Source of the DNA: Alphaproteobacteria bacterium
Lineage (GTDB): Bacteria; Pseudomonadota; Alphaproteobacteria; RF32; CAG-239
Assembly (NCBI GenBank): GCA_017477185.1
Contig: JAFUXF010000012.1
Location: 2,850 to 66,849, forward strand
Reading direction: 5' to 3'
Length of the DNA: 64,000 nucleotides
Positions 748-23,509 of this stretch are shown in pieces. Positions within the stretch are counted from its first letter, which is position 1, and each line of letters begins with the position of its first letter. The notes below the pieces were generated by a model. The model saw only the letters and a program-made list of their open reading frames with translations, did no database searches and was not told where the DNA came from. The position numbers were made by a program, and so were the translations under genes.

Positions 748-2304
748 TGGGGTGTCGCCAAGTGGTAAGGCATCGGCTTTTGGTGCCGACATTCGTAGGT
801 TCGAATCCTGCCACCCCAGCCAACTGGATTCAGAGGCTATTGAGAGCAAGCTCTCAATAGCCTTATTCATTGAAAATAAACACTTTTTTCCATCAATTTC
901 TAAGTTCGAATACAAGATTTTTAATAACGCTCTTTTTTTATCAATGTTCGAACTCTCAAACAAATTTTTAGCTTCCAACAGCAAGCTAAGCAAGGCTTTA
1001 AGCGTTATATTGCACTTGCGTGCTATCGGTGCGTAATCTGACAAGTGTTCTGTAATATAATCTTGTCTGTTTCGTATCTCTGTTAACAATTTGTTGTATT
1101 CTATCTGTGTAATACCTCCTTCATCTTCAGGCATGATTCTTAACTCTAATAACTTACTCCTTTTTTCTTCCAATTTTTTATATTCATTTTCTAAACGGCT
1201 TCTATCCATTCTTTCAAGCTGCACATCTTCATTAACCATTTTTTCCAATTCCGGCAGTACTTTTTCAATCTCGCTTTTAGGTAAGTTTTTAAGCCTCTCC
1301 AATAGGCTATTTACTTGCTTAAGGGCATCATTCTCATTCATGGTCGTTTTGCATTTAGGGCAGATTAAATAGCGATATACCTTACCATTTTTCTTGGATT
1401 TATAGTCGGTCGTTATTGTTCTGCCACATTTGGCACAATGCAGTATTCCTTGAAACAAAGCCTCGTTCTTACGCACTTTATGATTCATCTTTCCGTCTAA
1501 TATATCTTGGCACTTTTGCCATGTTTCCTCATCTACCAGTGTTTTATATGTGTGTTTATACATTTGCCCTTTTACCGTCATATAACCGCAATAAAATTTG
1601 TTTCGCAGTATTGTGCTTATTGTTTGCTTATGTAGTCTGGTACTTTGAGTTCTGGTCGTTAATCCCCATTCTTGGGCTTTTTCCGTAATTTGCTGTAAAT
1701 TATAAATCCCTTTTGAAAATTCATAAAACAATTTTTTAAGAATTGGGGCTCTTTCTGAATCTAATATAATATCGTTATTTTTTGCTTTTTTGGTATTCAA
1801 ATAACCTAACGGGGCTAAAAATCCATATTTTCCCTCTTCCAACATTTTATCGGTGCTACGTTTTACATTAGCAACAAAACTATTAATATAAGCATTAGCA
1901 ATCATTATATGAAACTGATACATCATAAGATCTTGTGGCGTTGAAAAGGCATCTAATCGTAAATTTTCGCTTACAAAATGCAACGTTATCCGCTCTTTCA
2001 TTTGCATTGCGTACAATACATTGTATTCCATAAATGTCCTCTGCAAGCGGTCAACTTTATCGCAAACGATAGCAATACACTCTTTTTGTGTTTTGATAAA
2101 ATCCAACATACGATAAAATTCAGGACGTTTTCCTTTTGTTGAACTTTCAACCAAATCAAACGATTTGATAATTTCAAGGTTATTATTTGCACAATAACGC
2201 TTTATTCTGTCCTTTTGTGCCTGTAACGAAAATCCGTCTTCTTGCTCTTTACTCGATACCCTAACGAAACTAACAGCGTATTTTACTTTTTTACAACTAT
2301 ACAT
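607..2304 (-). CDS. large serine recombinase (resolvase/invertase N-domain, recombinase domain, zinc-ribbon, coiled coil)
   Basis: N-terminal motif AVSFVRVSSKEQ...SLQAQ carries the catalytic Ser. Cys pairs CAKCGR...CPKC form the zinc ribbon, followed by a C-terminal coiled coil. The last ~70 codons (607-822) are antisense to tRNA-Gln and the GC-rich element, so that tail is probably not ancestral. Confidence 0.88.
   Translation of the reverse strand: MYSCKKVKYAVSFVRVSSKEQEDGFSLQAQKDRIKRYCANNNLEIIKSFDLVESSTKGKRPEFYRMLDFIKTQKECIAIVCDKVDRLQRTFMEYNVLYAMQMKERITLHFVSENLRLDAFSTPQDLMMYQFHIMIANAYINSFVANVKRSTDKMLEEGKYGFLAPLGYLNTKKAKNNDIILDSERAPILKKLFYEFSKGIYNLQQITEKAQEWGLTTRTQSTRLHKQTISTILRNKFYCGYMTVKGQMYKHTYKTLVDEETWQKCQDILDGKMNHKVRKNEALFQGILHCAKCGRTITTDYKSKKNGKVYRYLICPKCKTTMNENDALKQVNSLLERLKNLPKSEIEKVLPELEKMVNEDVQLERMDRSRLENEYKKLEEKRSKLLELRIMPEDEGGITQIEYNKLLTEIRNRQDYITEHLSDYAPIARKCNITLKALLSLLLEAKNLFESSNIDKKRALLKILYSNLEIDGKKCLFSMNKAIESLLSIASESSWLGWQDSNLRMSAPKADALPLGDTPTIINFLSLPLWQDGACADALRIFRYRSRPRMAKPPRPATNHESGSC
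748..822 (+). tRNA. tRNA-Gln (anticodon UUG), CCA encoded
   Basis: 75 nt. Acceptor TGGGGTG/CACCCCA. Anticodon stem TCGGC/GCCGA with loop TTTTGGT (anticodon TTG). T-arm GTAGG-TTCGAAT-CCTGC. Discriminator G followed by CCA. Closely resembles canonical bacterial tRNA-Gln. Confidence 0.92.
803..822 (+). repeat. left copy of 20-bp direct repeat (3' end of tRNA-Gln), att-like
   Basis: GAATCCTGCCACCCCAGCCA is identical to 23490-23509. Confidence 0.75.
834..863 (+). terminator. perfect 14-bp-arm palindrome immediately 3' of tRNA-Gln (terminator or recombinase-related site)
   Basis: AGGCTATTGAGAGC-aa-GCTCTCAATAGCCT followed by TATTCATT. It lies inside the antisense recombinase ORF. Confidence 0.4.
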
Positions 2305-2371
2305 TATTTAATCCTTTGTTTTAATCTAGTGAGAGCCTATTTAATAATAGGCTCTCGGTATTATTCATATA

Positions 2372-2737
2372 TTACATCGATTTTTTCACATGCTTTCTCA
2401 GATATCCATATGCATAAAAGTCCTTACACTCACTAAGCCAAAGTTCTTTATTTTTAGTTATAAGTGCAATCTCGCCTTTTTGTGCTGATTTCTGTAACCA
2501 TTGGTAAAAACTACCACTTATTATAAAGTCCGATAAATTACGAATCACTATATGTAATGGTCTTTTTTCTTTTTCTGTTTGCCTTAAATACGGCTTCAAT
2601 ATTTCAGGATGTTTGCAGCATATAGCTAAATTAATATACTTATACTCGTTTTTTGAAAATTCTCTTGAATTGTCAATGAGATATTTTCTATCTTTCGGAT
2701 GACAAATTATTAGGCTTTTTATCTGATTTTCAAACAT
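2372..2737 (-). CDS. hypothetical protein
   Basis: I prefer the start at MFENQIK because AAAGGAGA lies 7 nt upstream. The tracked ORF extends to 2815. Confidence 0.5.
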   Translation of the reverse strand: MFENQIKSLIICHPKDRKYLIDNSREFSKNEYKYINLAICCKHPEILKPYLRQTEKEKRPLHIVIRNLSDFIISGSFYQWLQKSAQKGEIALITKNKELWLSECKDFYAYGYLRKHVKKSM

Positions 2738-2789
2738 ATTTAATCTCCTTTGATTATTATTTTTATATATTTTTAAGTTCTGATTTAAA

Positions 2790-3905
2790 TTAATTGCAGA
2801 CATTTTTATCTCCAATTTTTATTATTGTGTTCTGTTCAATAACACGGCTAATTTGAGTGAACACAGCCCCAAAATAGTCGTCCGCAGACACCATATCTGC
2901 TAAATCCTTTTGCAAATTTTTAAGAAAAGGCGTTCTGCTCTTGCCGGTTAATTTTTGCAGGTCTACTCCTTCCATTTCTTTGCATAAAGCCATAAAACCA
3001 ATCAGTTCCATAATTTTGGGTATTTTGTAGCCCTTTTCTTTTAGCATAAGCGCGTACGCCTTATAGCTGTTAGGGTTTTCTAATATGCCTGAAACTCTGG
3101 CTTGTTGAATTTTTCGGAAAATATAAAGATTAATTTTCTGCGATATTGTACTGTTGAATAGATACTTAAAGGTCAAATCCTCTACATTAATCTCGCATTT
3201 TTTTAATAAGTTACGAATGTACCGTTTTCTGTTAAGCCGTACTTCCTGTCTTAAAACCCTGCAGTCGGCATATTGTTTGAAACTAATATTTTGATAAATA
3301 CCGTCATCTTTTTCACAACGGCGGTAACTGTTCTTAGAGCATTCTGTAATTTTATCGTACCAAGCTACTTCAAAAAAACTGGTATGAACTCTAACTGTTT
3401 CTCCTCCGTTTTTATGGGAAGTATCACAAACATCAAAATATCTTTGAAATTTACACCGCTTAAATTCCTGTAAAAGCGAAGAAACACTGACCGTCAAGGA
3501 GATATTTTTACCATAATGAATTCCTACAACGGGAGCATTTCTTAAGCAGTCCTCAGAAATTTCAATTCCAGCGGCACTAGTGTATTCTTTCAGCTTTTCA
3601 ATCAGCCTGTCAAAATCTTCATCGCAAATCTCTTGAAGATTGTTGCCGAATAGCATTTTAGGGGCGGAAAATTCTATTAAAAGAGCAGTCCTGTATCCTC
3701 CAACCCTTATTTGCTTACTGAGTTTTATGCGGGGAACATATCCTCTATACTTTAAAAATAACTTTTTCGGATCATAAATCGCATCGATATTCTTGTTAAT
3801 CCTCTCCACTATTCGAGCATTTGGGATAAAATTTTCCGGTTTCTTAATTTCAATATTAGCGACATCAATACATAGCCGCACAGTATCGCAAATATTATGC
3901 GTCAT
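2790..3905 (-). CDS. putative replication initiation protein (phage/plasmid gene II/X-like), function tentative
   Basis: Start at MTHNICD is preceded by AAGGAGG. The segment LLIEFSAPKMLFGNNLQ resembles the conserved xPK-x-xxG-x-N stretch of gene II/X-type initiators. I could not confirm this without a profile search. Confidence 0.5.
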   Translation of the reverse strand: MTHNICDTVRLCIDVANIEIKKPENFIPNARIVERINKNIDAIYDPKKLFLKYRGYVPRIKLSKQIRVGGYRTALLIEFSAPKMLFGNNLQEICDEDFDRLIEKLKEYTSAAGIEISEDCLRNAPVVGIHYGKNISLTVSVSSLLQEFKRCKFQRYFDVCDTSHKNGGETVRVHTSFFEVAWYDKITECSKNSYRRCEKDDGIYQNISFKQYADCRVLRQEVRLNRKRYIRNLLKKCEINVEDLTFKYLFNSTISQKINLYIFRKIQQARVSGILENPNSYKAYALMLKEKGYKIPKIMELIGFMALCKEMEGVDLQKLTGKSRTPFLKNLQKDLADMVSADDYFGAVFTQISRVIEQNTIIKIGDKNVCN

Positions 3906-4047
3906 GATGACCTCCTTTATTTGGATTTTTATTATCATTTACGGCTTCTAGGGGCTCTAAATCTTGTTTCATTTCATATAAAAGCTTAAGCACGGCGACT
4001 AAAACTTTTGCTGCTTCTGATTTTTTTCTTAAATTTATGATGTCCAT
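3895..4047 (-). CDS. small hypothetical protein (50 aa)
   Basis: Start at MDIINLRKK has AAAGGAG upstream. It overlaps the next gene's start by 11 nt. Confidence 0.4.
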   Translation of the reverse strand: MDIINLRKKSEAAKVLVAVLKLLYEMKQDLEPLEAVNDNKNPNKGGHHDA

Positions 4048-4189
4048 CTCTTCTCCTTTCATAAATGAGAGGTTTTTGAGATACATTTACAAATTTGAAT
4101 TTAGGTAAAACACCAAAAGGGCATTTATAAGACAAATTAAAATAAAATATTTTTTAACTATATTGATAAATCAACGCATTATAAAAATA

Positions 4190-4234
4190 AAAGTAGATTG
4201 TAGCATATAAATTAAAACTATTACAATCTACTTT
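4190..4234. repeat. 13-bp perfect inverted repeat in a ~300-bp extremely AT-rich intergenic region
   Basis: AAAGTAGATTGTA-N19-TACAATCTACTTT. It may be a terminator for the XRE gene or a candidate origin beside the putative Rep. Confidence 0.5.
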
Positions 4235-4383
4235 CATTTAAAGATACTTTATATTTACAATTTTTAAATCAAAAATTCATGATGAAAATCTATTTAATTA
4301 AAAAAATAATACATTTTTTGAAAAATTTTTAGCTTTAATGCAAAATCATAAAACTAATTTTTTATAACTGAAATATTAAAAGT

Positions 4384-4791
4384 TTAGCTTGCTTTACTTT
4401 TAATTTTTTTCTGACGCTCATCTTCTTCTTGCAATTTTTTTACTTGTTTAATCATATGCAACATAAATTTCAGAAAATGCTGCTGATGACCACACTCATT
4501 CTTTATATTCTCTTCTAGTCTTTTGATTTGCTCGTTATTACCACTAATAGGGGCGACCAGAAGATCACCAATGCTGCACCCTAAATAATTTGCTATTTTA
4601 TATAATGACATTAGAGACATATCCTTATTTTCAACATTTTCTATTTTAACTATGGTATTAACGGATAAATCCGCCTGTTTCGCTAAATCGCTCTGACTTA
4701 GGTGCTTTTTCGTTCTTCTGCTTCTAATGTTTTTACCAATTATTTCTAATAACTGATTTTGTCTGTTCGATAACTCGTTACTATGCTTCAT
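4384..4791 (-). CDS. XRE-family helix-turn-helix transcriptional regulator
   Basis: HTH_3-like segment LSQSDLAKQADLSVNTIVKIENVENKDMSLMSLYKIANYLGCSIGDL. Confidence 0.85.
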   Translation of the reverse strand: MKHSNELSNRQNQLLEIIGKNIRSRRTKKHLSQSDLAKQADLSVNTIVKIENVENKDMSLMSLYKIANYLGCSIGDLLVAPISGNNEQIKRLEENIKNECGHQQHFLKFMLHMIKQVKKLQEEDERQKKIKSKAS

Positions 4792-4841
4792 AATATTAAT
4801 CCTTATATTTTTAATAATATTTGTGCATTATTAATTTTTAA

Positions 4842-5171
4842 CTAATATTCATCAGCACGCATAATTGTTAATACTCGATTGGTAACCGCTATTTTGCTTG
4901 GGTCCGGACTTAAATATAAATAGTCAACATCATAGTAATCAATTTTCCAAAAATATTTTATTCCGCAGTAATCAAATGCTCCAAAGTCGTGTTCTCCGTT
5001 AGGGTCGTTATCATGAGTAAATTGATTAAAATTTTTGACTTTTTCCATAATAGCTATTTGCTCTGTCACTGAAAGCTTCGCAACACCCTTTGTTATTAAA
5101 ACTTTTCCCCCTTTAAGGGTTTTACGAAACTCATCATTCAGCTCTCTAATACAAATAATCTCGGCAATCAA
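4842..5171 (-). CDS. DUF3768-family protein
   Basis: Motifs NDPNGEHDFGAF...WKIDYYD...SPDP...VLTIMRADEY. It is a paralog of 27401-27721. Confidence 0.8.
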   Translation of the reverse strand: MIAEIICIRELNDEFRKTLKGGKVLITKGVAKLSVTEQIAIMEKVKNFNQFTHDNDPNGEHDFGAFDYCGIKYFWKIDYYDVDYLYLSPDPSKIAVTNRVLTIMRADEY

Positions 5172-5289
5172 TTGTTTCTCCTTTTTCTTTTATGGTAATT
5201 ACAAAAAAAGAAAAATGGCATTAAAAAACCTTTGAAAATTCATGCACTTACCCAGTGATTCTTTGTTTTTATGATTTTATAATAAGAAA

Positions 5290-5306
5290 TATGTCAGCTT
5301 TTGACA
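5290..5306. promoter_or_regulatory. operator-like palindrome aTGTCA-N5-TGACAc
   Basis: One of four similar sites in island intergenic regions. It contains a TTGACA -35-like hexamer. Confidence 0.3.
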
Positions 5307-5399
5307 CATGAATATTTTATATAAGATTATAATACCACAATAAAACAAGAGAAAAATATGCTTGAAAAGGATAAAAATTTTTAATTATAGAGCAACAAA

Positions 5400-6200
5400 A
5401 TGGTAAATATTAATGATGTTAAGCATATTACCAAACGCAAGGAATTGCTACAATTTGTTAAAACTAAGAAATTTATTAAGGTTTTAACCAATGGCAATGC
5501 CGCCTATGTTTGGCAGTCAAATATTTGGGATATGGACGATATAAAGGCTGATGAAAAAGAAGTTCGTAAACTTCTTCCAAAATTAACAAAAGATTATACC
5601 TGCTATATGATAGATGATATAGGGCGATTAATTCACACCATAAGGGTTAATTATTCGGTTATGAAAAAATTTGTAAGACGGTGGTTTCCCGATTGTTGGT
5701 ATGCTAAACGTATCTGGGAATATGATTCTCATGACGGTTTACCTCTTTTTCAGAAAGAAAGTCCTACACAAAATTATATTAGTCGCTGTTATGAGCTTAA
5801 AATAACTGCCATGGCGGCACCTCACGAAACAAGAGATGAGAATTTCGACTGGAACAGCGGTAAATTTCTTTTATTTACCGAAGACAACAAAATGCCGGAC
5901 AGACAACCGCACGCTCATGTTTGTGTACATTTAAATAATCAGCAATATCGTTGGACTCCCTTAAGAGATGCCTCTTGGGCTGATAGATTTAAGTCTATTT
6001 TCAGCGTGCGTTTAATTAATAATAAAACGACAGAGCCTTATACATCCGACAATTTAATTATTGAAGATGAAGTTGAACAAGATTGCTATTTCAATATGTC
6101 GAACAAAGATAAAAAAGAAATTGTCAAGCTACTAAATCGAAAAAAATTTAATTTATGGAGAAGTTATCAGCTTAGTAATGGAGAGCTTAAAGATGAATAA
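5400..6200 (+). CDS. hypothetical protein
   Basis: 266-aa ORF with no recognisable motif. Confidence 0.6.
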   Translation: MVNINDVKHITKRKELLQFVKTKKFIKVLTNGNAAYVWQSNIWDMDDIKADEKEVRKLLPKLTKDYTCYMIDDIGRLIHTIRVNYSVMKKFVRRWFPDCWYAKRIWEYDSHDGLPLFQKESPTQNYISRCYELKITAMAAPHETRDENFDWNSGKFLLFTEDNKMPDRQPHAHVCVHLNNQQYRWTPLRDASWADRFKSIFSVRLINNKTTEPYTSDNLIIEDEVEQDCYFNMSNKDKKEIVKLLNRKKFNLWRSYQLSNGELKDE

Positions 6201-6888
6201 AATCAGCAATAAACAGCTTAAAACCAAGATAAAATTGGAAAACATTGATAAAAATGATAAGCAATGGTGTATACGACGAGAAAAGCGTATAAAAGTCAGA
6301 CAATGGGCGGCAGATAGATTTTATGACTATATTTCGTATGATTTTCTCTACAACTTGCTCTATATGATGATTCATAAAAAATTTGTTCGGTGGTTTGGTA
6401 TTGATTACCATAGAATTACGAGAATAATTCACTTGTTTCAAGATATTTACTCAAAAAATTTAGAAGAATCGGTACACGAACTGTTTGGCGGTATTGATAA
6501 TGAAGATGAAGTTGAATATTGGATTGGGCGGTATCGTTGGGAGATTATGACTAAAGAAGATAATCTAATTATAACAATAGATGAGGATATAGATTATTTT
6601 AATCCGAACAAGGAGCCGGATACAACAGAATATATTTTACCAAAATATATGTTACATAATTTCTTACAGTTTAAGCAGTTATTCTATGATGTTGTCAGCA
6701 AAAAATATGATGTCGGAGCAGAACCTGATTTCTGGCTTTATGCCTGTCGTTACTTGCTAATGGAGGATAAAGAATTTAAAATATTTTTTTGGGGTGCCGA
6801 TGGTAAGAATTTCCCCTATAAACTGATTGAAAAATATAATCCCAAAGGCTTAGCAGCCATATCTGTGGAAACAAGAAGATCACCTTAA
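6193..6888 (+). CDS. hypothetical protein
   Basis: I prefer the start at MNKISNK (GGAGAG 7 nt upstream). It overlaps the upstream stop by 8 nt, which suggests translational coupling. Confidence 0.6.
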   Translation: MNKISNKQLKTKIKLENIDKNDKQWCIRREKRIKVRQWAADRFYDYISYDFLYNLLYMMIHKKFVRWFGIDYHRITRIIHLFQDIYSKNLEESVHELFGGIDNEDEVEYWIGRYRWEIMTKEDNLIITIDEDIDYFNPNKEPDTTEYILPKYMLHNFLQFKQLFYDVVSKKYDVGAEPDFWLYACRYLLMEDKEFKIFFWGADGKNFPYKLIEKYNPKGLAAISVETRRSP

Positions 6889-6991
6889 AAGGATTATTAC
6901 ACGAAAGAAAGCGACTATTAAAAGGAGATACTAAAACACATAAATAGCAAAAAAAACGATATATAAAAAATATGATTCATTAAATTCAATT

Positions 6992-7008
6992 GTGCCACAT
7001 TTTGACAC
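6992..7008. promoter_or_regulatory. operator-like palindrome GTGCCA-N5-TGACAC
   Basis: Lies upstream of the ankyrin gene. TTGACA with an 18-nt spacer and TATAAA could form a promoter. Confidence 0.3.
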
Positions 7009-7066
7009 ACACTAATATTAAATAATATAAAAAACAGCAATAACTTTATTAGAAAGAGAGATAAAA

Positions 7067-8092
7067 ATGTCAGATATTTATAATCCAATTAATTCGGAAA
7101 CAACAAAAAATACTGAAAAAAAGAAGAAAGCAGATGATTTTAATAAATCTGATGCAAGAGGTTGGACACCTTTAATGCGTTTAGCATACTCATCTCAAGA
7201 TATTCAAGCCATTAAAGATTTAATTGATAAGGGAGCGGATATTAATATAAAAGGAATTAACGGTTGGTCTCCGCTCATGGCTGCAATTATAGGACATAAT
7301 ACACCTGATGTTGTACAAGTATTAATAGATAATGGTGCCGATATAAACAGTATAGATAAAACTTATAAAAATATTTTAATGCGTGCTGTTGCTATCCCTG
7401 CAAATTCTCAAATTATAGAAAAATTGATACAAAACGGAGCTGATGCTAATGCTAAAGACAATAAAGATAAAACTGTGCTTATGAATGCCTTGTATTACTC
7501 TGATGATATTGGAAATATTGAAACTTTAGTCAGAAACGGAGCTGATGTTAATGCCAAAAATAAATATGGCGAAACACCGTTAATGTATGCTTTTCGTAAG
7601 TATGAAAATTTTGATATTATAGAATTATTGCTTAAAAATGGTGCAGATGTCAATGCCAGAGATGATTCAACAGAAACAATTTTAATGAAAGCTCTTGATA
7701 GGCATAAAACACCTGAATTTATAGAAAAATTAATTGAGTTTGGAGCTGATGTTAATTTGAAAAACAAACACGGAGAAAGTCCTTTAATCCGTGCTGTTTA
7801 TCAATCTAAAAATACGGGTATTATTGAAATCTTGTTAAAAAACGGGGCGGATATAAACATCCAAACAAAAGATGGTTTCACGCCTTTAATGAATGCCATT
7901 CGTTGTCCTAAAAAAGATAAAATTACAGAATTACTCATAGAACAAGGAGCTGATGTAAATATAACCAATCATAATGGAGATACAGCCCTCTCTCTTGCGA
8001 TTCAATATTCTAATAAACCTGAAATTATAGATTTATTAATTAAAAAGGCGACTGCTAAAATGAAAACAGTTAACACAGAAAAAGGAGCATAA
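7067..8092 (+). CDS. ankyrin-repeat protein (about 9 repeats)
   Basis: Repeated G-x-TPLM-x-A...LI/LL-x-x-GADVN units appear throughout. Confidence 0.9.
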   Translation: MSDIYNPINSETTKNTEKKKKADDFNKSDARGWTPLMRLAYSSQDIQAIKDLIDKGADINIKGINGWSPLMAAIIGHNTPDVVQVLIDNGADINSIDKTYKNILMRAVAIPANSQIIEKLIQNGADANAKDNKDKTVLMNALYYSDDIGNIETLVRNGADVNAKNKYGETPLMYAFRKYENFDIIELLLKNGADVNARDDSTETILMKALDRHKTPEFIEKLIEFGADVNLKNKHGESPLIRAVYQSKNTGIIEILLKNGADINIQTKDGFTPLMNAIRCPKKDKITELLIEQGADVNITNHNGDTALSLAIQYSNKPEIIDLLIKKATAKMKTVNTEKGA

Positions 8093-8095
8093 AAT

Positions 8096-8677
8096 ATGAC
8101 AAAAGCATTAGAAAAAAAATTTGCAACCTTAGACAAGTACATTCCCGAAGAATTGAAAGAAGCGGCTCTCAATAAAAATTTAGAAAATTATAAAAATATC
8201 CTTATTCCAATGAACATCAGCCATTTACCTTTTAATTTCAAGCTTAATACACGTGGCGGTTGGATTTCTCCGGACGGAACATGGTATGTCGAATCTCTAT
8301 CAGCAGATCCTGATGTCGTTTTACGCCCTAAGCTTAAGGATTCTGCAAAATACAATCACAATCTACGCATACAAGCCTTTAAGGAAGGATGGGTAAGATT
8401 GGATTGGCAACAAGCAATAAGTTCTCGAAAGTTTGAAATAAAAGAAAGTTCTTCCAGGAAATTTATTATTACGCTTGATGGTAATACAAAAATCAATTAC
8501 AAATTGTTTTTAGCTATTCAAACTATAGCTATGGTTTATACCCTTGTTCAGGCAACAAAATTTACATATGAATTAAGGCTCGTCACAAAATATGAAGATA
8601 AAAAAATAACCCATAAAGCCGAACAATCTCAGGGATTTGAATTTTTTAACATTCAGCTTAACAAGATTCGCCGTTAG
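8096..8677 (+). CDS. hypothetical protein, coupled to the ankyrin gene
   Basis: 193-aa ORF that starts 4 nt after the ankyrin stop, with AAAGGAG upstream. Confidence 0.6.
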   Translation: MTKALEKKFATLDKYIPEELKEAALNKNLENYKNILIPMNISHLPFNFKLNTRGGWISPDGTWYVESLSADPDVVLRPKLKDSAKYNHNLRIQAFKEGWVRLDWQQAISSRKFEIKESSSRKFIITLDGNTKINYKLFLAIQTIAMVYTLVQATKFTYELRLVTKYEDKKITHKAEQSQGFEFFNIQLNKIRR

Positions 8678-10828: not shown

Positions 10829-10875
10829 GATGTATCTCCTAATTTATAAAAACAGCTTGTATATAGTTCATAACT

Positions 10876-15136: not shown

Positions 15137-15145
15137 TTGAATTGT

Positions 15146-15300
15146 GTGTCGCGGAAAGAACCTACCAGGTTCGGAGCGGATAGTTGGTGAAAACGAGCTT
15201 TAATAGCGAAGTTTGAACCTTACAACGCGAGGAGGACCCGCTTTAGCGGGAGTACCCAATCAGGCAGCCGGAGCCAACACAGCCCACACCATCACCACCA
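15146..15300 (+). other. GC-rich structured non-coding element, related to 553-747
   Basis: Ordered shared k-mers are GTGTCGCG, AAGAACC, GGTTCG and ATAGCGAA. Hairpins are GAACC/GGTTC and CCCGC-TTTA-GCGGG. No ORF in any frame. It lies between the restriction-gene stop and the terminator. Confidence 0.35.
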
Positions 15301-15345
15301 GTATGTGAAAGCTGAGCTTAAGGAAGATTTAGCTAAAGTCGATGA

Positions 15346-16083: not shown

Positions 16084-16120
16084 AAGATGCCTCCTTTATA
16101 AGCATCTTAGCATAGTAATT

Positions 16121-17254
16121 TTAAAATGCTATAGGTAAAAAACGTTTTATTACTTCGGCAACCATGTCAACAGGTATTGCATTACCTGCTTGTTTGCGAG
16201 TTTGGCAATCAGATACTACAATTTTAAAAGTTTCTGGAAATCCTTGTAATCTAAGCATTTCTCTAGGGGTTAATCTCCTTTCTCCATTTACTAAAAGGTA
16301 ATTATAACTTGCTCCAGCCCTTAATGCACAACTATATGGATAAGAAGATATATTTCCTGATTTATTTTCGTGCCATATTGCTGGATAATATTTAGAAGTG
16401 TGCATAGCTTTTCTTTTAGAGATAATATCTTTAGATGCATAATATTTTTTATCGACAACTTTATCCAATATATCACTTAAAGTTTTTTGTTTTTCTACTT
16501 TAAAATTCCAATCCATCTTAAAAGGTTTTTTAGCCCCTAATATCAAAACTCTTTCTCTTTTTTGAGGTAGCCCAAAATCTAAAGCATTTAACAAATGATA
16601 ATCTACGTAATAACCTAATTCATCTCTTAGTACTTCTATAATAGTTCTAATAGTCTTTCCATTATTATGACTAGCTAGATTTTTAACATTTTCTAAGACA
16701 AAAGCTTGTGGTTGTTTTGCTTTTATAATACGTGCTATATCAAAAAATAATGTTCCTCTTGTCGTATCTTCGAAACCTTTTCTTAAACCACATATAGAAA
16801 ATGTTTGACAAGGAAATCCTCCAAATAATAAATCAAATGTAGGAATCTGAGAAGCTTTTATTTTTGTTATATCTCCTGCAGGTCTCTCACTAAAATTTGC
16901 TTCATATGCCTCTTGTGCATATTTATCTATATCGCTACTAAAAACACATTTTCCTTTTATATTTAACTGATCAAAAGCTTTTTGAGATGCATATCTGAAA
17001 CCACCTATTCCACAAAATAAATCTACAAAACTCATTTTTTTTGGTAAAATCTTGCCGTGATTATGTTCTATATCCATGAATAACTTATCTATACTAACAT
17101 TTAACATTTTTGATAATTTCATAGCTATTACAATAGATGGTGTTACTGTATTTTTCTCTATTTTAGAAAGATATGTACGACTGATACCTGCTATTTTAGC
17201 AAGTTCAATTTGTGTAATGTGTTTTTCTTTTCTAATTTTAGCGACATTATTCAT
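16121..17254 (-). CDS. DNA (cytosine-5) methyltransferase with N-terminal XRE-type HTH
   Basis: HTH ITQIELAKIAGISRTYLSKIE. Motif I DLFCGIGGF. Motif IV GGFPCQTFS. Motif VI ENV. Also QKRERV, and the C-terminal RRLTPREMLRLQGFP and GNAIPV. Confidence 0.92.
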   Translation of the reverse strand: MNNVAKIRKEKHITQIELAKIAGISRTYLSKIEKNTVTPSIVIAMKLSKMLNVSIDKLFMDIEHNHGKILPKKMSFVDLFCGIGGFRYASQKAFDQLNIKGKCVFSSDIDKYAQEAYEANFSERPAGDITKIKASQIPTFDLLFGGFPCQTFSICGLRKGFEDTTRGTLFFDIARIIKAKQPQAFVLENVKNLASHNNGKTIRTIIEVLRDELGYYVDYHLLNALDFGLPQKRERVLILGAKKPFKMDWNFKVEKQKTLSDILDKVVDKKYYASKDIISKRKAMHTSKYYPAIWHENKSGNISSYPYSCALRAGASYNYLLVNGERRLTPREMLRLQGFPETFKIVVSDCQTRKQAGNAIPVDMVAEVIKRFLPIAF

Positions 17255-17284
17255 TAAGCGTTTCTTTCAAAAATGTAAACTAAG

Positions 17285-17302
17285 ATGTACAGAATATTAC
17301 AT
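17285..17302. promoter_or_regulatory. inverted repeat ATGTA-N8-TACAT upstream of the HTH-methyltransferase (possible C-box-like operator)
   Basis: A third ATGTA lies at 17273-17277. All are within the 98-bp gap before the MTase start. Confidence 0.3.
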
Positions 17303-17352
17303 ATCGCTCTATAAAAGTCTATTTCTTTTTAATATATGCACATTTAATAATT

Positions 17353-17817
17353 TTATTTTCTTTCGTTTTTAATGTTTTCTCTGAAAGATGCAACCAGATC
17401 TTGAACTTGTATTACACAATCACGATCTAATCGAAACATTTGTGTTTGAAATGTCCCTCCTGTTGCTTTTGATTTAATCTCGTTAAAATCTCTAATATAG
17501 TCAACAATATCTCTATTTAGTAAGGTTTTATATTTTTTATTTATGATTGTTAAACTTGAAGAAATATTTTTCCCTTTATATGTAATTTCACTAGCTCTTA
17601 AAGTACGTTCATCTTGTGAAAGTCCCGCAACCATCCAATATTGGCGACAAAGTTCGAGATAAGTATCTATATCTTTAACTATTTCATTTAATTCATCATT
17701 GAATTTATTTAATTTTAATTGTTGTGATAATTTAATTTCTTTATACCAACTAACACCAGCAGCTGCTACTGAACTTATAGCAGAAACTACACTGACAATT
17801 GTACTAATACTACACAT
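17353..17817 (-). CDS. single-pass membrane protein (putative effector of the GHKL/STAS module)
   Basis: N-terminal TM segment SISTIVSVVSAISSVAAAGVSWY followed by ~125 aa predicted helical. AAGGAAG RBS. Overlaps the upstream gene by 8 nt. Confidence 0.6.
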   Translation of the reverse strand: MCSISTIVSVVSAISSVAAAGVSWYKEIKLSQQLKLNKFNDELNEIVKDIDTYLELCRQYWMVAGLSQDERTLRASEITYKGKNISSSLTIINKKYKTLLNRDIVDYIRDFNEIKSKATGGTFQTQMFRLDRDCVIQVQDLVASFRENIKNERK

Positions 17818-18139
17818 TTTTTGCTTCCTTTAAATATCCTTTTAGCAAAGGTATCAATGTATCGTCATCACTGCATGTAAATTCAATTTTTGCAGTCACT
17901 TCATCGTACGAAAAACCATCTTCTGTAATTAAAGAAACAAACGCTTCATCCCAAAAAGAAGAACCAACACCACATAAACCGTTAAGGTTAATAATAATTT
18001 TTTCAACATTCCTATCTCTCAGTGGTTCTACCAAAAACTCTTTTCTAAATTTTTCTCCACTATAAGGTCCGTCATTATAAAAACGCCCCGCAGGGACTTT
18101 ACTAAAGTCATTGGCTATAGATATATTTTTTATTTCCAT
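17810..18139 (-). CDS. STAS-like (DUF4325-type) small protein
   Basis: I prefer the start at MEIKNIS (AGGAGG upstream). IIINLNGLCGVGSSFWDEAF is typical of DUF4325/STAS-like partner domains. Confidence 0.6.
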   Translation of the reverse strand: MEIKNISIANDFSKVPAGRFYNDGPYSGEKFRKEFLVEPLRDRNVEKIIINLNGLCGVGSSFWDEAFVSLITEDGFSYDEVTAKIEFTCSDDDTLIPLLKGYLKEAKNV

Positions 18140-18147
18140 ATGTCCTC

Positions 18148-19161
18148 CTATTGTAAACGAACTTTCCACTGAATTAATGTACCTTTTAGAGATTCTTCTC
18201 TATTCTTTACAGATTCTGTACCTTCAGAAAGATACATATATTCTCCTCGATAACTAAATATTTTTAACATTCCTTCTATATTTGATGTAATATAATCTTT
18301 TATATCCTTCAAGCCTTTTCCTCGAGTCTTCTGTTTTGTTGATGTTCTACTTAGTTGAGTTGCAGCTTGTATCCTCTGTGCATCATCATTAAGTAACCCT
18401 CCAAAACTTTTAAAATATTCCGTATGTGTTCTAGGTAAAGAATTAGGTATTCCTATACCTTCATCATAAAACATTATTGTTAACATCTTATTTTTAATAT
18501 TTAAGGACGCAGACATCCACCATAGTCGTTTTTTTAATAAATTATTTGATAAATAATCTTCTGGATATGCGTGATTTATTGAGTTTGTCATAGCTTCTGT
18601 TAAACCTTTTTGCAGTGCTCTAGGAGAAGGTACAGAACCTTGAATTAAGGCTGATAATAAAGTTCCAAGTTTTAAAGCATCTTCACCTGAAGCTATATCT
18701 CCAGCTTGAAATGGTATATAAAAATCTTCACTATCATTTTTTTCATAATTAAATTTTGCAGGTAGATTACTGACATTTAAGAGCTCAAACATTCCCATGT
18801 CCCTAAGTTGTAATCGAATATTTCTATCCCATTTTTTAAAATCTATTACCCTCATTCTCCTAAAACACTTTATACGTTTTATCCTATCTATTTCGGCTGT
18901 AAAAGCTAATGCAGCTGCCGGAGATATTTTTTTTAATGGTTTAAAATCAATAATGAATCTTTTTTTTGTCTCCTCGCAAGCAGATCTTAATTTATTAAAA
19001 AATTTTACTGTCTCATCATAATTTTCATTAAGATTCATATTTTCTGGTGTCTTAATGTTTTCTAAGGCATACTTTCGATGTCGTTTATTTTTTTTGAAAA
19101 TAGAGCGACGTATTTTATTCAATAAATATTTTTTATGTTCTTCTGATAGTTTTTTCATCAA
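18148..19161 (-). CDS. GHKL-type ATPase (HATPase_c-like) with N-terminal STAS-like region
   Basis: N-box-like EAMTNSINHAYP. G1-like YDEGIGIP. G2-like TRGKGLKDI. The N-terminal half has IIDFKPLKKISPAAALAFTAEIDRI. Confidence 0.7.
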   Translation of the reverse strand: MMKKLSEEHKKYLLNKIRRSIFKKNKRHRKYALENIKTPENMNLNENYDETVKFFNKLRSACEETKKRFIIDFKPLKKISPAAALAFTAEIDRIKRIKCFRRMRVIDFKKWDRNIRLQLRDMGMFELLNVSNLPAKFNYEKNDSEDFYIPFQAGDIASGEDALKLGTLLSALIQGSVPSPRALQKGLTEAMTNSINHAYPEDYLSNNLLKKRLWWMSASLNIKNKMLTIMFYDEGIGIPNSLPRTHTEYFKSFGGLLNDDAQRIQAATQLSRTSTKQKTRGKGLKDIKDYITSNIEGMLKIFSYRGEYMYLSEGTESVKNREESLKGTLIQWKVRLQ

Positions 19162-19236
19162 TAACCTTTACTATTCGTAGCAATTATATTGAGTTATTAT
19201 CTTTCAATCAAGGATATTTTATATCTTTTTATCCCT

Positions 19237-19554
19237 TCACGCCACATAATACGAACTTATCTTTTTACCATTCTTGCATACATTTTCCTGATATAACAAG
19301 CCATTTTCATCATATAATTTAACCGTACCGTGCATTTTACCATTTTTATAAGGTATCGCCATAAATAGCTTTCCGCTCTTTCTATTGTAGACACGCATGA
19401 TCCCATTAAGTGGATTGTTTTGTAAATCATAGCGGATATTATTCTTAAAAACAGTATTCTGCGGTGTATATTCCTCTTGTGCCTGACAATTAAAGCTAAA
19501 CAAACTGATTATAACAACCACTAATATGCTTAATTTATTGAAATACACAAACAT
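19237..19554 (-). CDS. secreted MORN-repeat-variant (YwqK-like) protein
   Basis: I prefer the start at MFVYFNKLSILVVVIISLFSFNCQAQ, which is a signal peptide. Repeats are G-x-x-x-x-Y-x-x-x-G and KNGKMHGTVKLYDENG. Confidence 0.65.
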   Translation of the reverse strand: MFVYFNKLSILVVVIISLFSFNCQAQEEYTPQNTVFKNNIRYDLQNNPLNGIMRVYNRKSGKLFMAIPYKNGKMHGTVKLYDENGLLYQENVCKNGKKISSYYVA

Positions 19555-19672
19555 TTGCGTTCCTCCGTGTTGAACTTGATTATAATAAGTTTTACAGATA
19601 ACGCAAGAATTATCCGATCTACAAATGCCAAATATTGACACTAGTTAAAGATATTAAATTTACGTTGTGGAA

Positions 19673-20995
19673 TTACTCCAACTCCAACAACCACTCTAAC
19701 ACATTCAAACGTTTAATGCCTTTAGTATTGCCTGAGCCATAGTCCATAGAGAGCAAAAACTTCGGGTAATTGTCTTCGATTTCCTCTAATGGAGCTAATT
19801 CGCGTTTTAATACTTCCGGCTCCAGTGCATACAAAGCAACTTGGTAATATTCGACTTCACCAACACTTTTTTGAGCCACAAAATCAACTTCAATATTTTT
19901 ACCGCCTTTATTGATTTTACCGACAGACACTTGATAGCCACGTCGCAACAACTCTAAATATACGACATTTTCTAAAATATGCCCTTGATCCATATCTTCA
20001 TGACCAAGCAGAGCTGTACGCAAGCCAATATCAGCCACATAATATTTAGCACTATTCTCTAAAAGCTGTTTGCCTTTAATATCATAGCGGTCGCATTTAT
20101 ACATCAAATAGCTGTCGATTAAACCTTGTATATAGGTTGATATTGTCGGGACTGAAACACTAAAACCACCTGCTTTCAACCCTTTTTCAATATTTCGAAC
20201 CGACGTTTCATTGCCGATATTATCAAATAAATAACGCACCACCGCATCCAGTTTATTGGTATCACTGATTTTGAAGCGACGAACAATGTCTTTTTGAATA
20301 GTGTTGCGATATACCGTGTCCATCAAGTAGTCATTAATAAGTTGTCTATCGTATAAAAAATCTAATGTCTGAGGAAATCCACTTTTTTTAATGTAATGGG
20401 AATAAACTCCTAGCGGGTTACGAGTATCTTCCATTTCTTTAATCGTTAAAGCGTGTATAGGCGCTCTCATCGTGTAATCTGAATAATACTCTTTGAAAGA
20501 CAATGGTTGCATTTTGATTTCTACATAGCGACCGCCCAAAGTATTTGCCAAATCAGAAGAGAACATATAAGCATTAGAGCCAGTCAAATAAACATCAACA
20601 TTCTCGTGTAACCGAAGTGTATTAGCCACTCTCTGCCAATCACGCAATAATTGTATCTCATCAAGAAAGACATAATTCATTATTTGCGGTTTTAATCGTG
20701 CAACCACATAATCAAGCAGTTTGTTATAATCTGTTAAAAAGCCTTCTTTGTCATACTCTAAACCAATTTCTCTGGTTTTCATCAGGTCTTCAAGATTGAT
20801 ATTAATAATGTTGATTTTCTGTTTTTTATTATGGCTCTCAATTTCAAGATCCATTTGATAAAGTGAAAACAACTTCGATTTGCCGCACCGTCTTACGCCT
20901 GTTATGATTTTAATTAAATCCTGTTGAGACCGCCATTTTTGAAGTTGAGCGATATATGTTGGTCTTCCAATTAAATGTTCGACAGCTTTTTTCAT
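19673..20995 (-). CDS. AAA-superfamily ATPase with DUF4143-like C-terminal domain (COG1373-type)
   Basis: Walker A GVRRCGKS and Walker B VFLDEIQ. Overall architecture is typical of this family. Confidence 0.8.
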   Translation of the reverse strand: MKKAVEHLIGRPTYIAQLQKWRSQQDLIKIITGVRRCGKSKLFSLYQMDLEIESHNKKQKINIININLEDLMKTREIGLEYDKEGFLTDYNKLLDYVVARLKPQIMNYVFLDEIQLLRDWQRVANTLRLHENVDVYLTGSNAYMFSSDLANTLGGRYVEIKMQPLSFKEYYSDYTMRAPIHALTIKEMEDTRNPLGVYSHYIKKSGFPQTLDFLYDRQLINDYLMDTVYRNTIQKDIVRRFKISDTNKLDAVVRYLFDNIGNETSVRNIEKGLKAGGFSVSVPTISTYIQGLIDSYLMYKCDRYDIKGKQLLENSAKYYVADIGLRTALLGHEDMDQGHILENVVYLELLRRGYQVSVGKINKGGKNIEVDFVAQKSVGEVEYYQVALYALEPEVLKRELAPLEEIEDNYPKFLLSMDYGSGNTKGIKRLNVLEWLLELE

Positions 20996-21386
20996 TGTTT
21001 TTCTCCTTTATAGATATTATATTTTACAAAAACACAAAAATCAAGTATTTTGTAAAATACATTTAACAAAATATATAAAATATTATTTTTGTAAAATGGA
21101 ATTGAAATAGTACTCATAATTCGTATTTTTTTGCGATTGTATGCGTTTTTTACTTTTTACGCATAACTTATCGGTTTTGACCGTTTTCGTGCGTGTACGT
21201 GCGAAAAAACCGCATTAAAATCGATTTATAACTTATTGTTATCAACAACTTTTTTCTATATAACACATTGATTTTATTTAATATCTAAAAATAATTTAAT
21301 TTTTTAAAAAATTTTTGAGACATTTTTAATCGAATATGTTATAAAAATTGATATAATCGTGAGGAAGTGTGTCCGAATGATTATGT

Positions 21387-21484
21387 AAGACCCTTAGAGG
21401 TCTTTTTTTATGTCTGAATAAGAAATTTATTCAGGTATTTTTTTAACCGTAAAAGCTGTGCAGTAATGTACAGCTTTTTTTATT
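21387..21484 (+). terminator. three consecutive intrinsic-terminator-like hairpins
   Basis: AAGACC/GGTCTT with T7 (21387-21409). CTGAATAA/TTATTCAG with T8 (21414-21444). AAAAGCTGT/ACAGCTTTT with a T run (21451-21484). A TG-n-TATAAT extended -10 lies at about 21347-21356. Confidence 0.45.
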
Positions 21485-21514
21485 TTAAATTTATTAGAAA
21501 AGGAAAAACTAAAT

Positions 21515-22414
21515 ATGTTTAATAATAACAATAATTACAATTCTCAGGGTGTTCCTTCATATGTGGCTTACGGCGGTGTTCCTGTCGGTATTCCTAAGGG
21601 TTCTGTTCCGCAAAATGCTACCGGAGGGGCTGTCCCTCAATGGAGTTTGGGACAACAAAGCACAACTTCCGCTTTTGGACAGCCAATCCAACTTGTTCAG
21701 AACAATGTACCTATTGAGGAAGAAAAAGCTACTTTAGGTTTTACCAAAGAAATTCCCAATACTATTGCAGGAAGCGGAAATATTCTTCCGCAACCTGATT
21801 ATAGTATACAAAATTCATCTCCTAATCTAGGTTTAGAAGTTCTACAAAATCAGATTAAATCTTTTGAAAGAAAGGTTCCCTATCCATATAAAGATATTGG
21901 CGGATTACCTACTTGGGGATATGGACATATGGATAAAACAGAAGAAGGATTTATGGCTCAGCCTTGGATAAATAAAACGACCGGACTTCCTGCAACAGAG
22001 CAAGAAAAATTATCAGAATATAATAAGTTTTTGCAATTGCCGTATGGTCAAGAATATGGAGCTAATTATTACAAAAATAAAACTAATTTATTTTTATCAG
22101 ACAAAGACATAGATTCATTATTAGCTAAAGATATCTCGGATAAAAATAAAAATCTTCAAAATTTTCCGTATTACAATAATTTCAGCCAAACAATCAAAAA
22201 TGCTCTTATTGATTCTGAATTTAATACAGGGCAAGTTGTTTCAGGTTATCCTCTATTACATAGCGAAGCAAATAAATTAGGAACTAGCAATTTTGATTTA
22301 GATGCTTTCTGCGGAAATCTGCATAGAGCTGATAGTAATAATCCTACAATGCAGGAAAGAAATGATTGGACACTTAATCAATGTCTAAATGGGTATATCA
22401 TTCCAAGAAAATAG
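21515..22414 (+). CDS. lysozyme-like (GH24-type motif) protein with N/Q/G/P-rich N-terminus
   Basis: FERKVPYPYKDIGGLPTWGYGH resembles the E...PY-x-D...G-x-x-T-x-GYGH catalytic region of phage-type lysozymes. There is no classical signal peptide. Confidence 0.55.
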   Translation: MFNNNNNYNSQGVPSYVAYGGVPVGIPKGSVPQNATGGAVPQWSLGQQSTTSAFGQPIQLVQNNVPIEEEKATLGFTKEIPNTIAGSGNILPQPDYSIQNSSPNLGLEVLQNQIKSFERKVPYPYKDIGGLPTWGYGHMDKTEEGFMAQPWINKTTGLPATEQEKLSEYNKFLQLPYGQEYGANYYKNKTNLFLSDKDIDSLLAKDISDKNKNLQNFPYYNNFSQTIKNALIDSEFNTGQVVSGYPLLHSEANKLGTSNFDLDAFCGNLHRADSNNPTMQERNDWTLNQCLNGYIIPRK

Positions 22415-22472
22415 ATGACAAATAAATTATTATGTTTATTATTATATCTATAATTGATTTTAGGGAGTATAG

Positions 22473-23321
22473 ATGAAAAAAATTTTTTCTTGCATATGTG
22501 TGCTTATCTGCCTTTGGAACACTAATACTCTCGCCGAAGCCAAATGTGATACTTACATTATGGGTAAATGTTTTTCATGCCATTCACCTATAACCTTTGA
22601 AATTTCATCTGATGAAATTTGTCAGATGATTTGCCCTGAACGCATTGTTATACATTCTTGGAAAAGTTCTTTTTGCGCTCTGAGCAAATGTCCAAAATCA
22701 TACCCATATCGTGATGAAAAAACAGGAGACTGCCGTTTATCTCAACAAACACCTATGGACATTGAGCTTAATAAAATTAATATTGAAGAACATACAAACA
22801 AAGAAAAATATAGTATTCCTGCAAAAAATAATAAATGTCCTAAGAATAAACCTCTTTTATCAAAAGGCTTTTGTTATCCTTGTGATTATAAATATCCTCT
22901 GTTCATAAATAAAGAATTATTAAAATATTGTCCTAATCGAATAAACATTCCTTATCCTTGGATAAAAGATCATAATGAAATTCTTACGTATCTTATTTGC
23001 CCCAAAGATAGACCTTTATATCACTGGAGCGGAGAATGCTATCCTTGCAATTATCCGGATACCGTACCTGTTTTAACGCAATGCCTTGAAGATAAAAAAA
23101 TATGTGACGTCTGCCCAAATAGAACCATTTTGCCTTTATCTGGAGGCAATAGACCGAGTGTCTTAAATTGTCCGAAAGACAAGCCTTTAATGGATATTAA
23201 CGGGATTTGTTTTAGTTGTGATACACCATTAAAAATTAATATTACTGAAATGGAAGATTCTTGTCATAAAAACTGTTCTAATCAAAGAGTCTTACAAGGG
23301 AATTTATGTGTAAAGAAGTAA
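22473..23321 (+). CDS. secreted cysteine-rich repeat protein
   Basis: Signal peptide MKKIFSCICVLICLWNTNTLA. Four CPK(S/N/D)-x-P-x(7-10)-C-x-x-C units: CPKSYPY, CPKNKPL, CPKDRPL and CPKDKPL. Confidence 0.7.
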   Translation: MKKIFSCICVLICLWNTNTLAEAKCDTYIMGKCFSCHSPITFEISSDEICQMICPERIVIHSWKSSFCALSKCPKSYPYRDEKTGDCRLSQQTPMDIELNKINIEEHTNKEKYSIPAKNNKCPKNKPLLSKGFCYPCDYKYPLFINKELLKYCPNRINIPYPWIKDHNEILTYLICPKDRPLYHWSGECYPCNYPDTVPVLTQCLEDKKICDVCPNRTILPLSGGNRPSVLNCPKDKPLMDINGICFSCDTPLKINITEMEDSCHKNCSNQRVLQGNLCVKK

Positions 23322-23489
23322 ATCACGTCATTCCCGTTGCAAACCGTTACCCGCAGCCGATTAAAGGTGATTTATGTTATTAGCAGTGCTAATAACTTTT
23401 GCTAATAACTTTAAGGTTTACACCCCAGCTTGTTTTTAGTTAAGTGATTGATTTTACGCAATAACAAGGTTTGTGGCTATGTATTGTAT

Positions 23490-23509
23490 GAATCCTGCCA
23501 CCCCAGCCA
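23490..23509 (+). repeat. right copy of 20-bp direct repeat (displaced tRNA-Gln 3' end), att-like
   Basis: GAATCCTGCCACCCCAGCCA is identical to 803-822. The upstream flank is not tRNA-like. Confidence 0.75.

Follow-up and report, generated by a model that had tools for sequence, protein, structure and literature searches.

We analysed a 64,000-nt stretch of DNA (the window) from what appears to be an uncultured gut alphaproteobacterium, whose genome (G000; 1.58 Mb in 51 contigs) carries an interval of about 22.7 kb at the 3' end of its tRNA-Gln(UUG) gene, bordered by a large serine recombinase (LSR) gene. All positions are those of the window; G-numbers denote genomes and C-numbers contigs of G000. 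The intact tRNA-Gln(UUG) lies at 748–822 on the plus strand, on the attL side of the interval, and was recognized by both ARAGORN and Rfam. It is the only tRNA found in the window by either tool and the sole tRNA-Gln(UUG) of the genome. Its terminal 20 nt, GAATCCTGCCACCCCAGCCA, begin at the G of the T-loop and reach the CCA end of the tRNA. They are found at 803–822 and recur exactly at 23490–23509 (plus strand), where they constitute a displaced tRNA-Gln 3' end. No further copy is present in the window with up to three mismatches or in the 1.58-Mb genome with up to two, and two matches were obtained in 0 of 100 shuffled sequences.

The LSR gene (823–2304, minus strand) encodes 494 aa up to the tRNA border and is arranged tail-to-tail with tRNA-Gln. 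The protein contains the Resolvase (PF00239, 3.4e-20, residues 10–159) and Recombinase (PF07508, 4.3e-13) domains, followed by a zinc ribbon (PF13408) with conserved Cys positions that scores 5e-5 and 24 bits against a cut-off of 25.3 bits. The catalytic motif is RVSS, and an alignment with 11 relatives shows that R15, V16, S17 and Q21 are invariant. The G+C content (GC) is 0.311 across 823–23489 vs 0.378 for the genome, and low GC (0.332) lasts to about 28.3 kb. An original prediction, made from the letters of the window, had described one island delimited by a perfect 20-bp repeat at tRNA-Gln, with no tRNA-like sequence 5' of the second repeat copy and with an LSR gene abutting the tRNA, and had proposed a profile of GC skew and k-mer composition. 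These features of the locus are all borne out by our data; the unity of the island is considered below.

Empty sites and the ancestral trailer

What lay behind the tRNA before the interval was acquired? In G019 and G023, two genomes from other genera of the same family, the homologue of 23510–23577, a hairpin followed by a U-run, stands directly 3' of tRNA-Gln. The empty site that had been expected in relatives therefore exists, with the tRNA joined to the sequence from 23510. The same trailer (flank B, 23510–23680, plus strand) lies 12.5 kb away from the tRNA in G017 and comes after a 13.5-kb LSR element in G114. As flank B adjoins the tRNA in the first two genomes and follows island ends in the other two, it represents the ancestral tRNA-Gln trailer. 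Everything between 822 and 23510 has been inserted at the 3' end of tRNA-Gln and was acquired horizontally.

Flank B contains two hairpins. One, with a U-run, lies at 23514–23550 (-10.6 kcal/mol), directly after the right repeat, and is conserved in relatives; the other, at 23566–23619 (-22.4 kcal/mol, z = -5.6), corresponds to the structure at 23568–23623 previously put forward as the native tRNA terminator. The latter hairpin is real, but the conserved terminator that immediately follows the tRNA end is the former. The AT-rich stems caused both to be missed by a consensus scanner. An old T-arm remnant, GGTTTGAATCCAGCC, persists within flank B (23658–23672, plus strand) and is also kept in G019.

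A third tRNA-end copy divides the interval

A third, diverged copy of the tRNA end, ATCAAGTCTCTCCAGCCA, which had gone unnoticed in the original prediction, is located at 15083–15100 (plus strand) and divides the interval in two: a proximal element, E2 (823–15100; 14,278 bp; GC 0.308), and a distal element, E1 (15101–23489; 8.4 kb; GC 0.317). ATCAAGTCTCTCCAGCCA matches the tRNA end at 13 of 18 positions, namely the last 7 nt and scattered others, and consists of ATCAAGTCTCT followed by the core CCAGCCA (15094–15100). The left copy of this heptamer is the end of the tRNA itself (816–822, plus strand), so that the short common core of E2 is CCAGCCA(A), at 816–823 and 15094–15101.

The sequence that starts at 15101 was compared with G002, G006 and G009, which belong to the same genus as G000; G006 and G009 are the nearest relatives by one core gene (81% amino-acid identity). 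Over 70 nt it is 97% identical (BLAST) to the region directly 3' of the intact tRNA-Gln in G002, and joining 748–822 to 15101 onward reproduces the G002 tRNA and trailer over about 150 nt, with one A-run indel and two mismatches. G006 and G009 carry the same trailer type. In the window this genus-type trailer, with its terminator at 15099–15139, is followed by a mini-element (scaffold type 3; both within 15101–15276, plus strand) that ends with a perfect 19-nt copy of the tRNA-Asn 3' end (15258–15276). E2 is therefore a clean insertion between the tRNA end and a genus-typical trailer. Five changes in the 18-mer beside a nearly unchanged trailer cannot be accounted for by neutral decay, and the 11 nt that precede the core are thus the element's own arm. 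The core gene at 43552–44946 and tRNA-Gln are on separate contigs in all relatives, and synteny is uninformative.

Similar junctions were observed elsewhere. A 13.5-kb LSR element in G114 ends in '...gcaagacgtct CCAGCCA' followed by flank B, and a 12.0-kb LSR element in G147 ends in '...gcacgtcgtct CCAGCCA' followed by a terminator. The arrangement '...CT CCAGCCA + tRNA trailer' occurs twice in G017, and in G228 an LSR element at tRNA-Trp has the core CCTGCCA, again followed by a terminator. The inverted-repeat symmetry of attP, judged by eye, points to the 5' part of CCAGCCA as the crossover position, without being decisive. Thus, the island proposed originally stands as an insertion at tRNA-Gln and fails as a single unit, for two elements are probably stacked there and the LSR has its own end at 15100. 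The doubt voiced with that proposal, that a 20-bp identity hardly suits an LSR, was well placed: the LSR element shares just CCAGCCA(A) with the tRNA end.

The 3' part of tRNA-Gln is GAATCCAGCCACCCCAGCCA in many relatives (G019, G147, G114 and others; for example locus L080, 159–174). Genes of this type contain two CCAGCCA heptamers, one in the T-stem and, 9 nt apart from it, another at the 3' end. If the same recombinase used the upstream heptamer, longer repeats that start near the T-loop could result.

The recombinase and its relatives

The LSR gene ends exactly at the core, and its frame therefore runs into the tRNA when the element is integrated, the read-through being a by-product. The open reading frame (ORF) remains open through the tRNA to position 607, giving 565 aa in the integrated state, and would measure 517 aa in a circle of 823–15100 and 504 aa in a circle of the whole interval. 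In tRNA-Trp elements the read-through ORF stops after four codons, as read from the tRNA-Trp 3' sequence.

Homologues of the LSR are present in 125 of the 282 genomes of the family. Nine loci with a neighbouring tRNA were studied closely, and in each of them the LSR ORF enters the tRNA; the tRNAs at this first set of loci are Gln, Pro-UGG, Pro-CGG, Asp, Glu and Leu, and the 3' end is always the one involved. At further loci of the family, the 3' end of a tRNA (Gln, Pro or Trp) lies exactly 40 nt past aligned residue 481 in 24 of 27 cases, a border identical to that in the window. A locus search with the single LSR as query returned one unrelated match only. A profile search of GTDB species genomes yielded 80 LSR loci, and at 53 of them the projected C-terminus has a tail-to-tail tRNA or tmRNA 3' end no more than 10 nt away; of the other 27, about nine have too short a flank to judge. 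These loci derive from gut Alphaproteobacteria, Rickettsiales, Melainabacteria, Fusobacterium, Chlamydiae, Planctomycetota, Patescibacteria, Atribacteria, Acidobacteria and Bdellovibrionota; relatives occur in at least ten phyla, and those in Chlamydiae and Planctomycetota adjoin tmRNA. Since this geometry is kept down to 23–30% identity, unlike that of a passenger gene, the integration of E2 is assigned, on sequence grounds, to its own LSR.

A degraded LSR homologue (28–30% identity, C-terminal half only) was found at C2:19914–20717 (locus L097), approximately 350–430 bp from the 3' end of tRNA-Lys(UUU), and represents a second, decayed element of the same kind.

Gene content of the two elements

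The backbone of E2 comprises the LSR, a 382-aa G2P-like protein, a helix-turn-helix (HTH) regulator and a 199-aa tyrosine recombinase, and recurs in G011, G114, G126, G147 and G267. The gene for the 382-aa protein (2790–3938, minus strand) is a conserved partner of the LSR gene, and its homologues adjoin LSRs in the same five genomes and in G015. The product is probably a distant relative of G2P/CRI-type rolling-circle initiators: PF05144 matches 5 of about 20 family members, with a best E-value of 2.6e-6. The protein itself has no sequence match in Pfam, PHROG, NCBIfam or PDB and no fold match in PDB; its AlphaFold2 model (predicted local distance difference test score 82.6) is closest in fold to unnamed viral proteins of the same length (E 3e-9). 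The Rep that had been postulated here can thus be retained tentatively, for the family and not for the match of the window protein.

The 199-aa tyrosine recombinase (11285–11884, plus strand; PF00589, 5.6e-17) consists of the catalytic domain only. It is a single-copy gene in the genome, 10.5 kb from the tRNA, and copies with 63–64% identity reside in the LSR elements of G011, G114, G126, G147 and G267, a degree of conservation that exceeds that of the LSR. It has the size of FimB/FimE-type invertases and could act as a switch or as a dimer-resolution enzyme. In a conspecific metagenome assembly (locus L180, ENA ERZ28653820; 2013–2611 and 7008–7713), the 199-aa recombinase gene and a 231-aa cargo gene are each split in two ORFs.

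Between the Rep-like gene and the tyrosine recombinase gene, the minus strand encodes the HTH regulator (4384–4791) and a DUF3768 protein (4842–5171). The plus-strand cargo at 5400–8677 consists of two proteins without assigned function, an ankyrin-repeat protein (7067–8092) and a further protein without assigned function. It is followed on the minus strand by a WYL/WCX regulator (8674–9624) and a PD-(D/E)XK nuclease (9887–10828), for which PADLOC gave a partial PDC-S26 match. Beyond the tyrosine recombinase, a full-length NsnC-NsnB-NsnA defence operon (11888–14903, minus strand) was identified by PADLOC (NsnA 7e-109, NsnB 8e-89, NsnC 5e-50); the three genes are adjacent, with start–stop overlaps at 12628 and 13782.

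No integrase is encoded among the genes of E1. On the minus strand it carries a type II restriction-modification (R-M) system (15346–17254), formed by a candidate endonuclease without family match (15346–16083) and an HTH-fused C5 cytosine (Dcm) methyltransferase (16121–17254); a GHKL-type ATPase, a STAS-like DUF4325 protein and a small membrane protein (17353–19161), for which PADLOC returned no match; and an AAA_14/DUF4143 ATPase (19673–20995) that corresponds to the PADLOC candidate system PDC-S01 (2.4e-128). Genes for a lysozyme-like protein and a Cys-rich secreted protein follow on the plus strand (21515–23321). E1 closes with a conserved right-end module of about 135 nt (23340–23480, plus strand), which is 75–87% identical to the right end of an island at tRNA-Asn on C8 and to a copy on C28.

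The C8 island (C8:1142–6905, locus L095) is a second integrase-less island in the genome, 5.7 kb long, inserted at tRNA-Asn(GUU) and flanked by an 18-nt repeat, ATCAGGCAGCCGGAGCCA. Besides a Fic protein it encodes a type IIG R-M enzyme of 1242 aa, and just outside the island lies a paralogue of the lysozyme-like gene. The defence modules anticipated for the interval thus resolve into NsnABC, the type II methyltransferase, PDC-S01 and the partial PDC-S26 match, and the ankyrin and lysozyme-like genes are confirmed. Taken by itself, the island is a mobile element of an ordinary, defence-carrying kind, and the locus adds to the record of defence-system travel in small-genome gut bacteria.

Mini-elements and neighbouring sequence

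Upstream of the intact tRNA-Gln, the region 468–547 (plus strand) is the native promoter and leader of the gene, with 83–90% identity to the sequence 5' of intact tRNA-Gln in G002, G006 and G009. It is followed at the native position by a decayed 5' part of a tRNA-Gln copy (548–605, plus strand; 86% identity over 57 nt to 747–803), and in G002 an intact tRNA occupies the matching position. The decayed fragment is joined at the T-loop to a remnant of a tRNA-trailer mini-element (606–718, plus strand; scaffold type 2) that ends in CATCCTGCCAC, and the intact tRNA stands 140 nt downstream. This remnant is 93% identical to an element in G002 that sits after tRNA-Gln and its terminator. The form of 548–718 in the window could be derived from that of G002 by deletion between two copies of GGTTCG.

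Mini-elements of about 150 nt form a family that is found 3' of many tRNA genes, on the same strand. Besides the two window copies (606–718 and 15101–15276), G000 contains members at C30:32855–33000, C44:67289–67420, C51:35156–35290, C39:104560–104728, C32:6236–6280 and 7226–7286, and C23:15040–15230. Their order is terminator, diverged inverted copy of the tRNA 3' half, short loop, direct copy of the T-arm 5' strand, conserved scaffold caaggaggagcaggcgagacggaagtatcgccgc..ttgcgacgacgcagcggcg and tRNA 3' part from the T-loop. The arms match the upstream tRNA, and a GGCGA...TCGCC hairpin displays compensatory changes. Type 1 is represented by seven copies, of which five begin 73–79 nt past a tRNA end. 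The module also constitutes the right end of LSR elements in G011, G015 and G267. Rfam searches of the mini-elements gave chance-level matches only, although one spurious miRNA match exposed a long palindrome. The idea that the right-end scaffold serves as a guide RNA for the LSR was rejected as unnecessary, because E2 and the elements of G114 and G147 lack the scaffold.

Beyond the ancestral trailer, 23700–28300 is a low-GC (0.33) accessory stretch of ORFs without assigned function. It includes a Fic-MerR fusion (26253–27197) that is 79% identical to a gene inside the G015 LSR element, and a second DUF3768 gene (27401–27721). Further downstream, a 65-aa fragment with 48% identity to the LSR N-terminus (40880–41074, plus strand) lies just upstream of the start of a 3716-aa autotransporter gene. 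Homologues of the C-terminal part of the autotransporter (about 42%) and of a hydrolase (28335–29084; 55%) are located inside the LSR elements of G011 and G126. On account of the LSR fragment and these homologues, the region 28–41 kb may be another decayed element.

Discussion

Based on these observations, we propose that the interval arose by tandem accretion of two integrative elements at a single tRNA-Gln(UUG) gene, an account that we regard as probable. E1 would be the older element. It lacks an integrase, opens with the genus-type trailer and its mini-element, and closes with the right-end module and the 20-bp copy of the tRNA end. E2 would have arrived later, its LSR recombining the element with the tRNA gene at CCAGCCA; as this core makes up the final seven bases of the gene, the tRNA would have been left intact. 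Either unit might still be capable of excision. Boundaries, empty sites, gene content and the association of the LSR clade with tRNA ends throughout the family are observed, whereas the exact point of crossover, the enzyme behind the 20-bp repeat and any present excision are inferred. What, then, produced the 20-bp repeat? In the simplest reading, a different enzyme left it behind when it integrated an earlier element. One candidate is a tyrosine integrase, as in G008: there the island at the same tRNA-Gln has a 17-bp T-loop-type repeat and encodes, next to the tRNA, a tyrosine integrase of 600 aa. The other is an LSR with its crossover in the T-loop, the mechanism suggested for the DsiB islands of Dehalococcoides. 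The ends of the elements in G011, G126 and G267/G015 make an LSR origin possible.

Several observations weigh against this proposal. The 7-bp repeat alone is not significant, and the E2 boundary is based on the trailer homology to G002, G006 and G009 together with the analogy to G114 and G147. E1 is regarded as the older element and yet the outer repeat is perfect, and the LSR elements of G011, G267/G015 and G126 end in repeats of 13–18 nt that start in the T-loop. A decayed copy occupies the native position of tRNA-Gln, and the intact gene at 748–822 is found downstream of it. Moreover, neither an excision product nor an empty site was found in conspecific metagenome contigs, which were retrieved via the Rep-like protein and a left-flank protein (short Logan contigs break in the tRNA); every contig that reaches the site has E2 integrated. 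The contigs belong to the ENA assemblies ERZ28654170, ERZ27256838, ERZ28653820 and ERZ28655174 and, in Logan, to the runs SRR12529321, SRR12529324, SRR12529326, SRR12529337 and SRR12529373. An exact-pattern scan of metagenome contigs across the left end of the element gave no match and no attP-type junction.

Could the whole of 823–23489 be one LSR element instead, with a 20-bp tRNA-end copy in its attP and a crossover in the T-loop, so that 15083–15276 would be a scar from an earlier host? The outer repeat matches at 20 of 20 positions, and the T-loop-starting ends of the G011, G126 and G267 elements would fit such a mechanism. So would the ssrA islands of Dehalococcoides, which combine a 20-bp repeat, an LSR that overlaps attL and an inferred insertion in the T-loop (PMC3146451). 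We nevertheless consider this explanation unlikely. The internal trailer is 97% identical to that of G002 and yet the 18-mer before it retains 13 of 18 positions, which is not how a displaced tRNA end would decay neutrally; the elements of G114 and G147, with the same backbone, share a 7-bp core only; and the distal right end has its homologue at the right end of the tRNA-Asn island, which is devoid of an LSR.

It appears quite improbable that a tyrosine recombinase, either the 199-aa enzyme or an integrase acting in trans, moves the 22.7 kb through a 20-bp T-loop core while the LSR is a passenger or a resolvase. The tRNA-Gln island of G008 offers a precedent at the same gene, and tyrosine-integrase islands are well known for repeats of 17–20 bp that extend from the T-loop to the 3' end (Williams 2002; the Islander paper). 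All related elements have conserved the 199-aa protein, which keeps the Arg, His-x-x-Arg, His and Tyr residues, as read by eye without a reference alignment. It lacks, however, an N-terminal DNA-binding domain and resembles enzymes of Xer/FimB size, and its gene occupies the middle of the element in every relative, far from both ends. The only other integrase-like match in the genome is partial and lies about 1 kb from tRNA-Leu on C44. In addition, the position of the LSR at tRNA ends is conserved across phyla, which does not befit a passenger. That the region is syntenic core, immobile and with a chance repeat, is barely credible: all sampled conspecific contigs do carry it at the same site, but the repeat exceeds chance, the cargo is absent from relatives, GC is 7 points lower, and the empty sites in four genomes rule it out.

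What are the implications of a recombinase that abuts tRNA ends? A clade of LSRs specific to tRNA and tmRNA 3' ends across phyla is a more interesting result than the island itself. Integration into tRNA genes is treated as a hallmark of tyrosine integrases. We tentatively suggest, as a possibility short of a likelihood, that a pan-bacterial and so far unrecognised LSR clade specialises in the final few bases of tRNA and tmRNA genes, that the LSR gene always stops at the CCA end of the RNA gene, that the clade switches target via a core of about 7 nt, and that the mini-elements are its non-autonomous partners or footprints. In this scheme the targets may include Gln, Trp, Pro, Glu, Asp, Leu, Ser, Arg, Val, Ala and Lys tRNAs as well as tmRNA. 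If this is true, the clade overturns the textbook rule that tRNA genes are used by tyrosine integrases only. An incomplete literature search found no later paper on an LSR clade that targets tRNA genes. As LSRs are valued in genome engineering, a clade that has conserved tRNA termini as natural attB and a short, target-varying core could be useful. Stacked elements at one tRNA also illustrate how a perfect long repeat can mislead the delimitation of islands.

The model has points in common with several known systems. Like the SCCmec cassettes (staphylococcal cassette chromosome mec) moved by CcrAB, E2 is associated with a serine recombinase, lies at the 3' end of a conserved single-copy gene, has short direct repeats and participates in a tandem composite. 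SCCmec differs in that it targets the protein-coding gene rlmH/orfX and needs two recombinases, which are not evident here; the match of our LSR to the NCBIfam CcrA model is weak (1.7e-17, far below the cut-off). The outer 20-bp repeat from T-loop to CCA end, with regeneration of the tRNA, is reminiscent of P4-like tyrosine-integrase islands at tRNA genes (the T-loop sublocation of Islander and Williams), whereas the interval lacks a full-length tyrosine integrase and has a serine enzyme as the recombinase next to its tRNA. Tandem residence of an integrase-less, att-ended element and an autonomous one at a single att site has a parallel in the accretion of cis-mobilisable elements (CIMEs) with integrative and conjugative or integrative and mobilisable elements in Streptococcus. 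Here the recombinase is of the serine and not the tyrosine type.

The closest described system, likened by description, is the DsiB/DsiA family of Dehalococcoides ssrA islands (McMurdie et al. 2011, PMC3146451). These islands encode a CcrB-like LSR whose ORF always overlaps attL, duplicate the 3' end of the tmRNA gene as a repeat, and form tandem arrays that include integrase-less members; insertion in the T-loop has been inferred for DsiB (PMC3146451). Differences are apparent in the target, which is tRNA-Gln here and the tmRNA gene ssrA there, and in the core of E2, which is 7–8 bp at the extreme 3' end and not a 20-bp T-loop repeat, although the outer 20-bp repeat fits. The window also lacks a second, small serine recombinase such as DsiA, none being encoded between its LSR and Rep-like genes, while an enzyme of this kind is present in G011, G114, G126 and G147. 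The backbone in our case is composed of a G2P-like protein and a 199-aa tyrosine recombinase, in an uncultured gut alphaproteobacterium. In both systems the LSR is encoded at the left edge, on the strand opposite to the RNA gene, by an ORF that overlaps attL and stops beyond it. Both also have a repeat that copies the 3' end of the RNA gene, tandem arrays with integrase-less, cis-mobilisable members, a single-copy essential RNA gene as target, and an integrative, mobilisable lifestyle without conjugation genes. With its fixed geometry at tRNA and tmRNA 3' ends, the LSR clade generalises what has been a single precedent, that of the Dehalococcoides ssrA islands.

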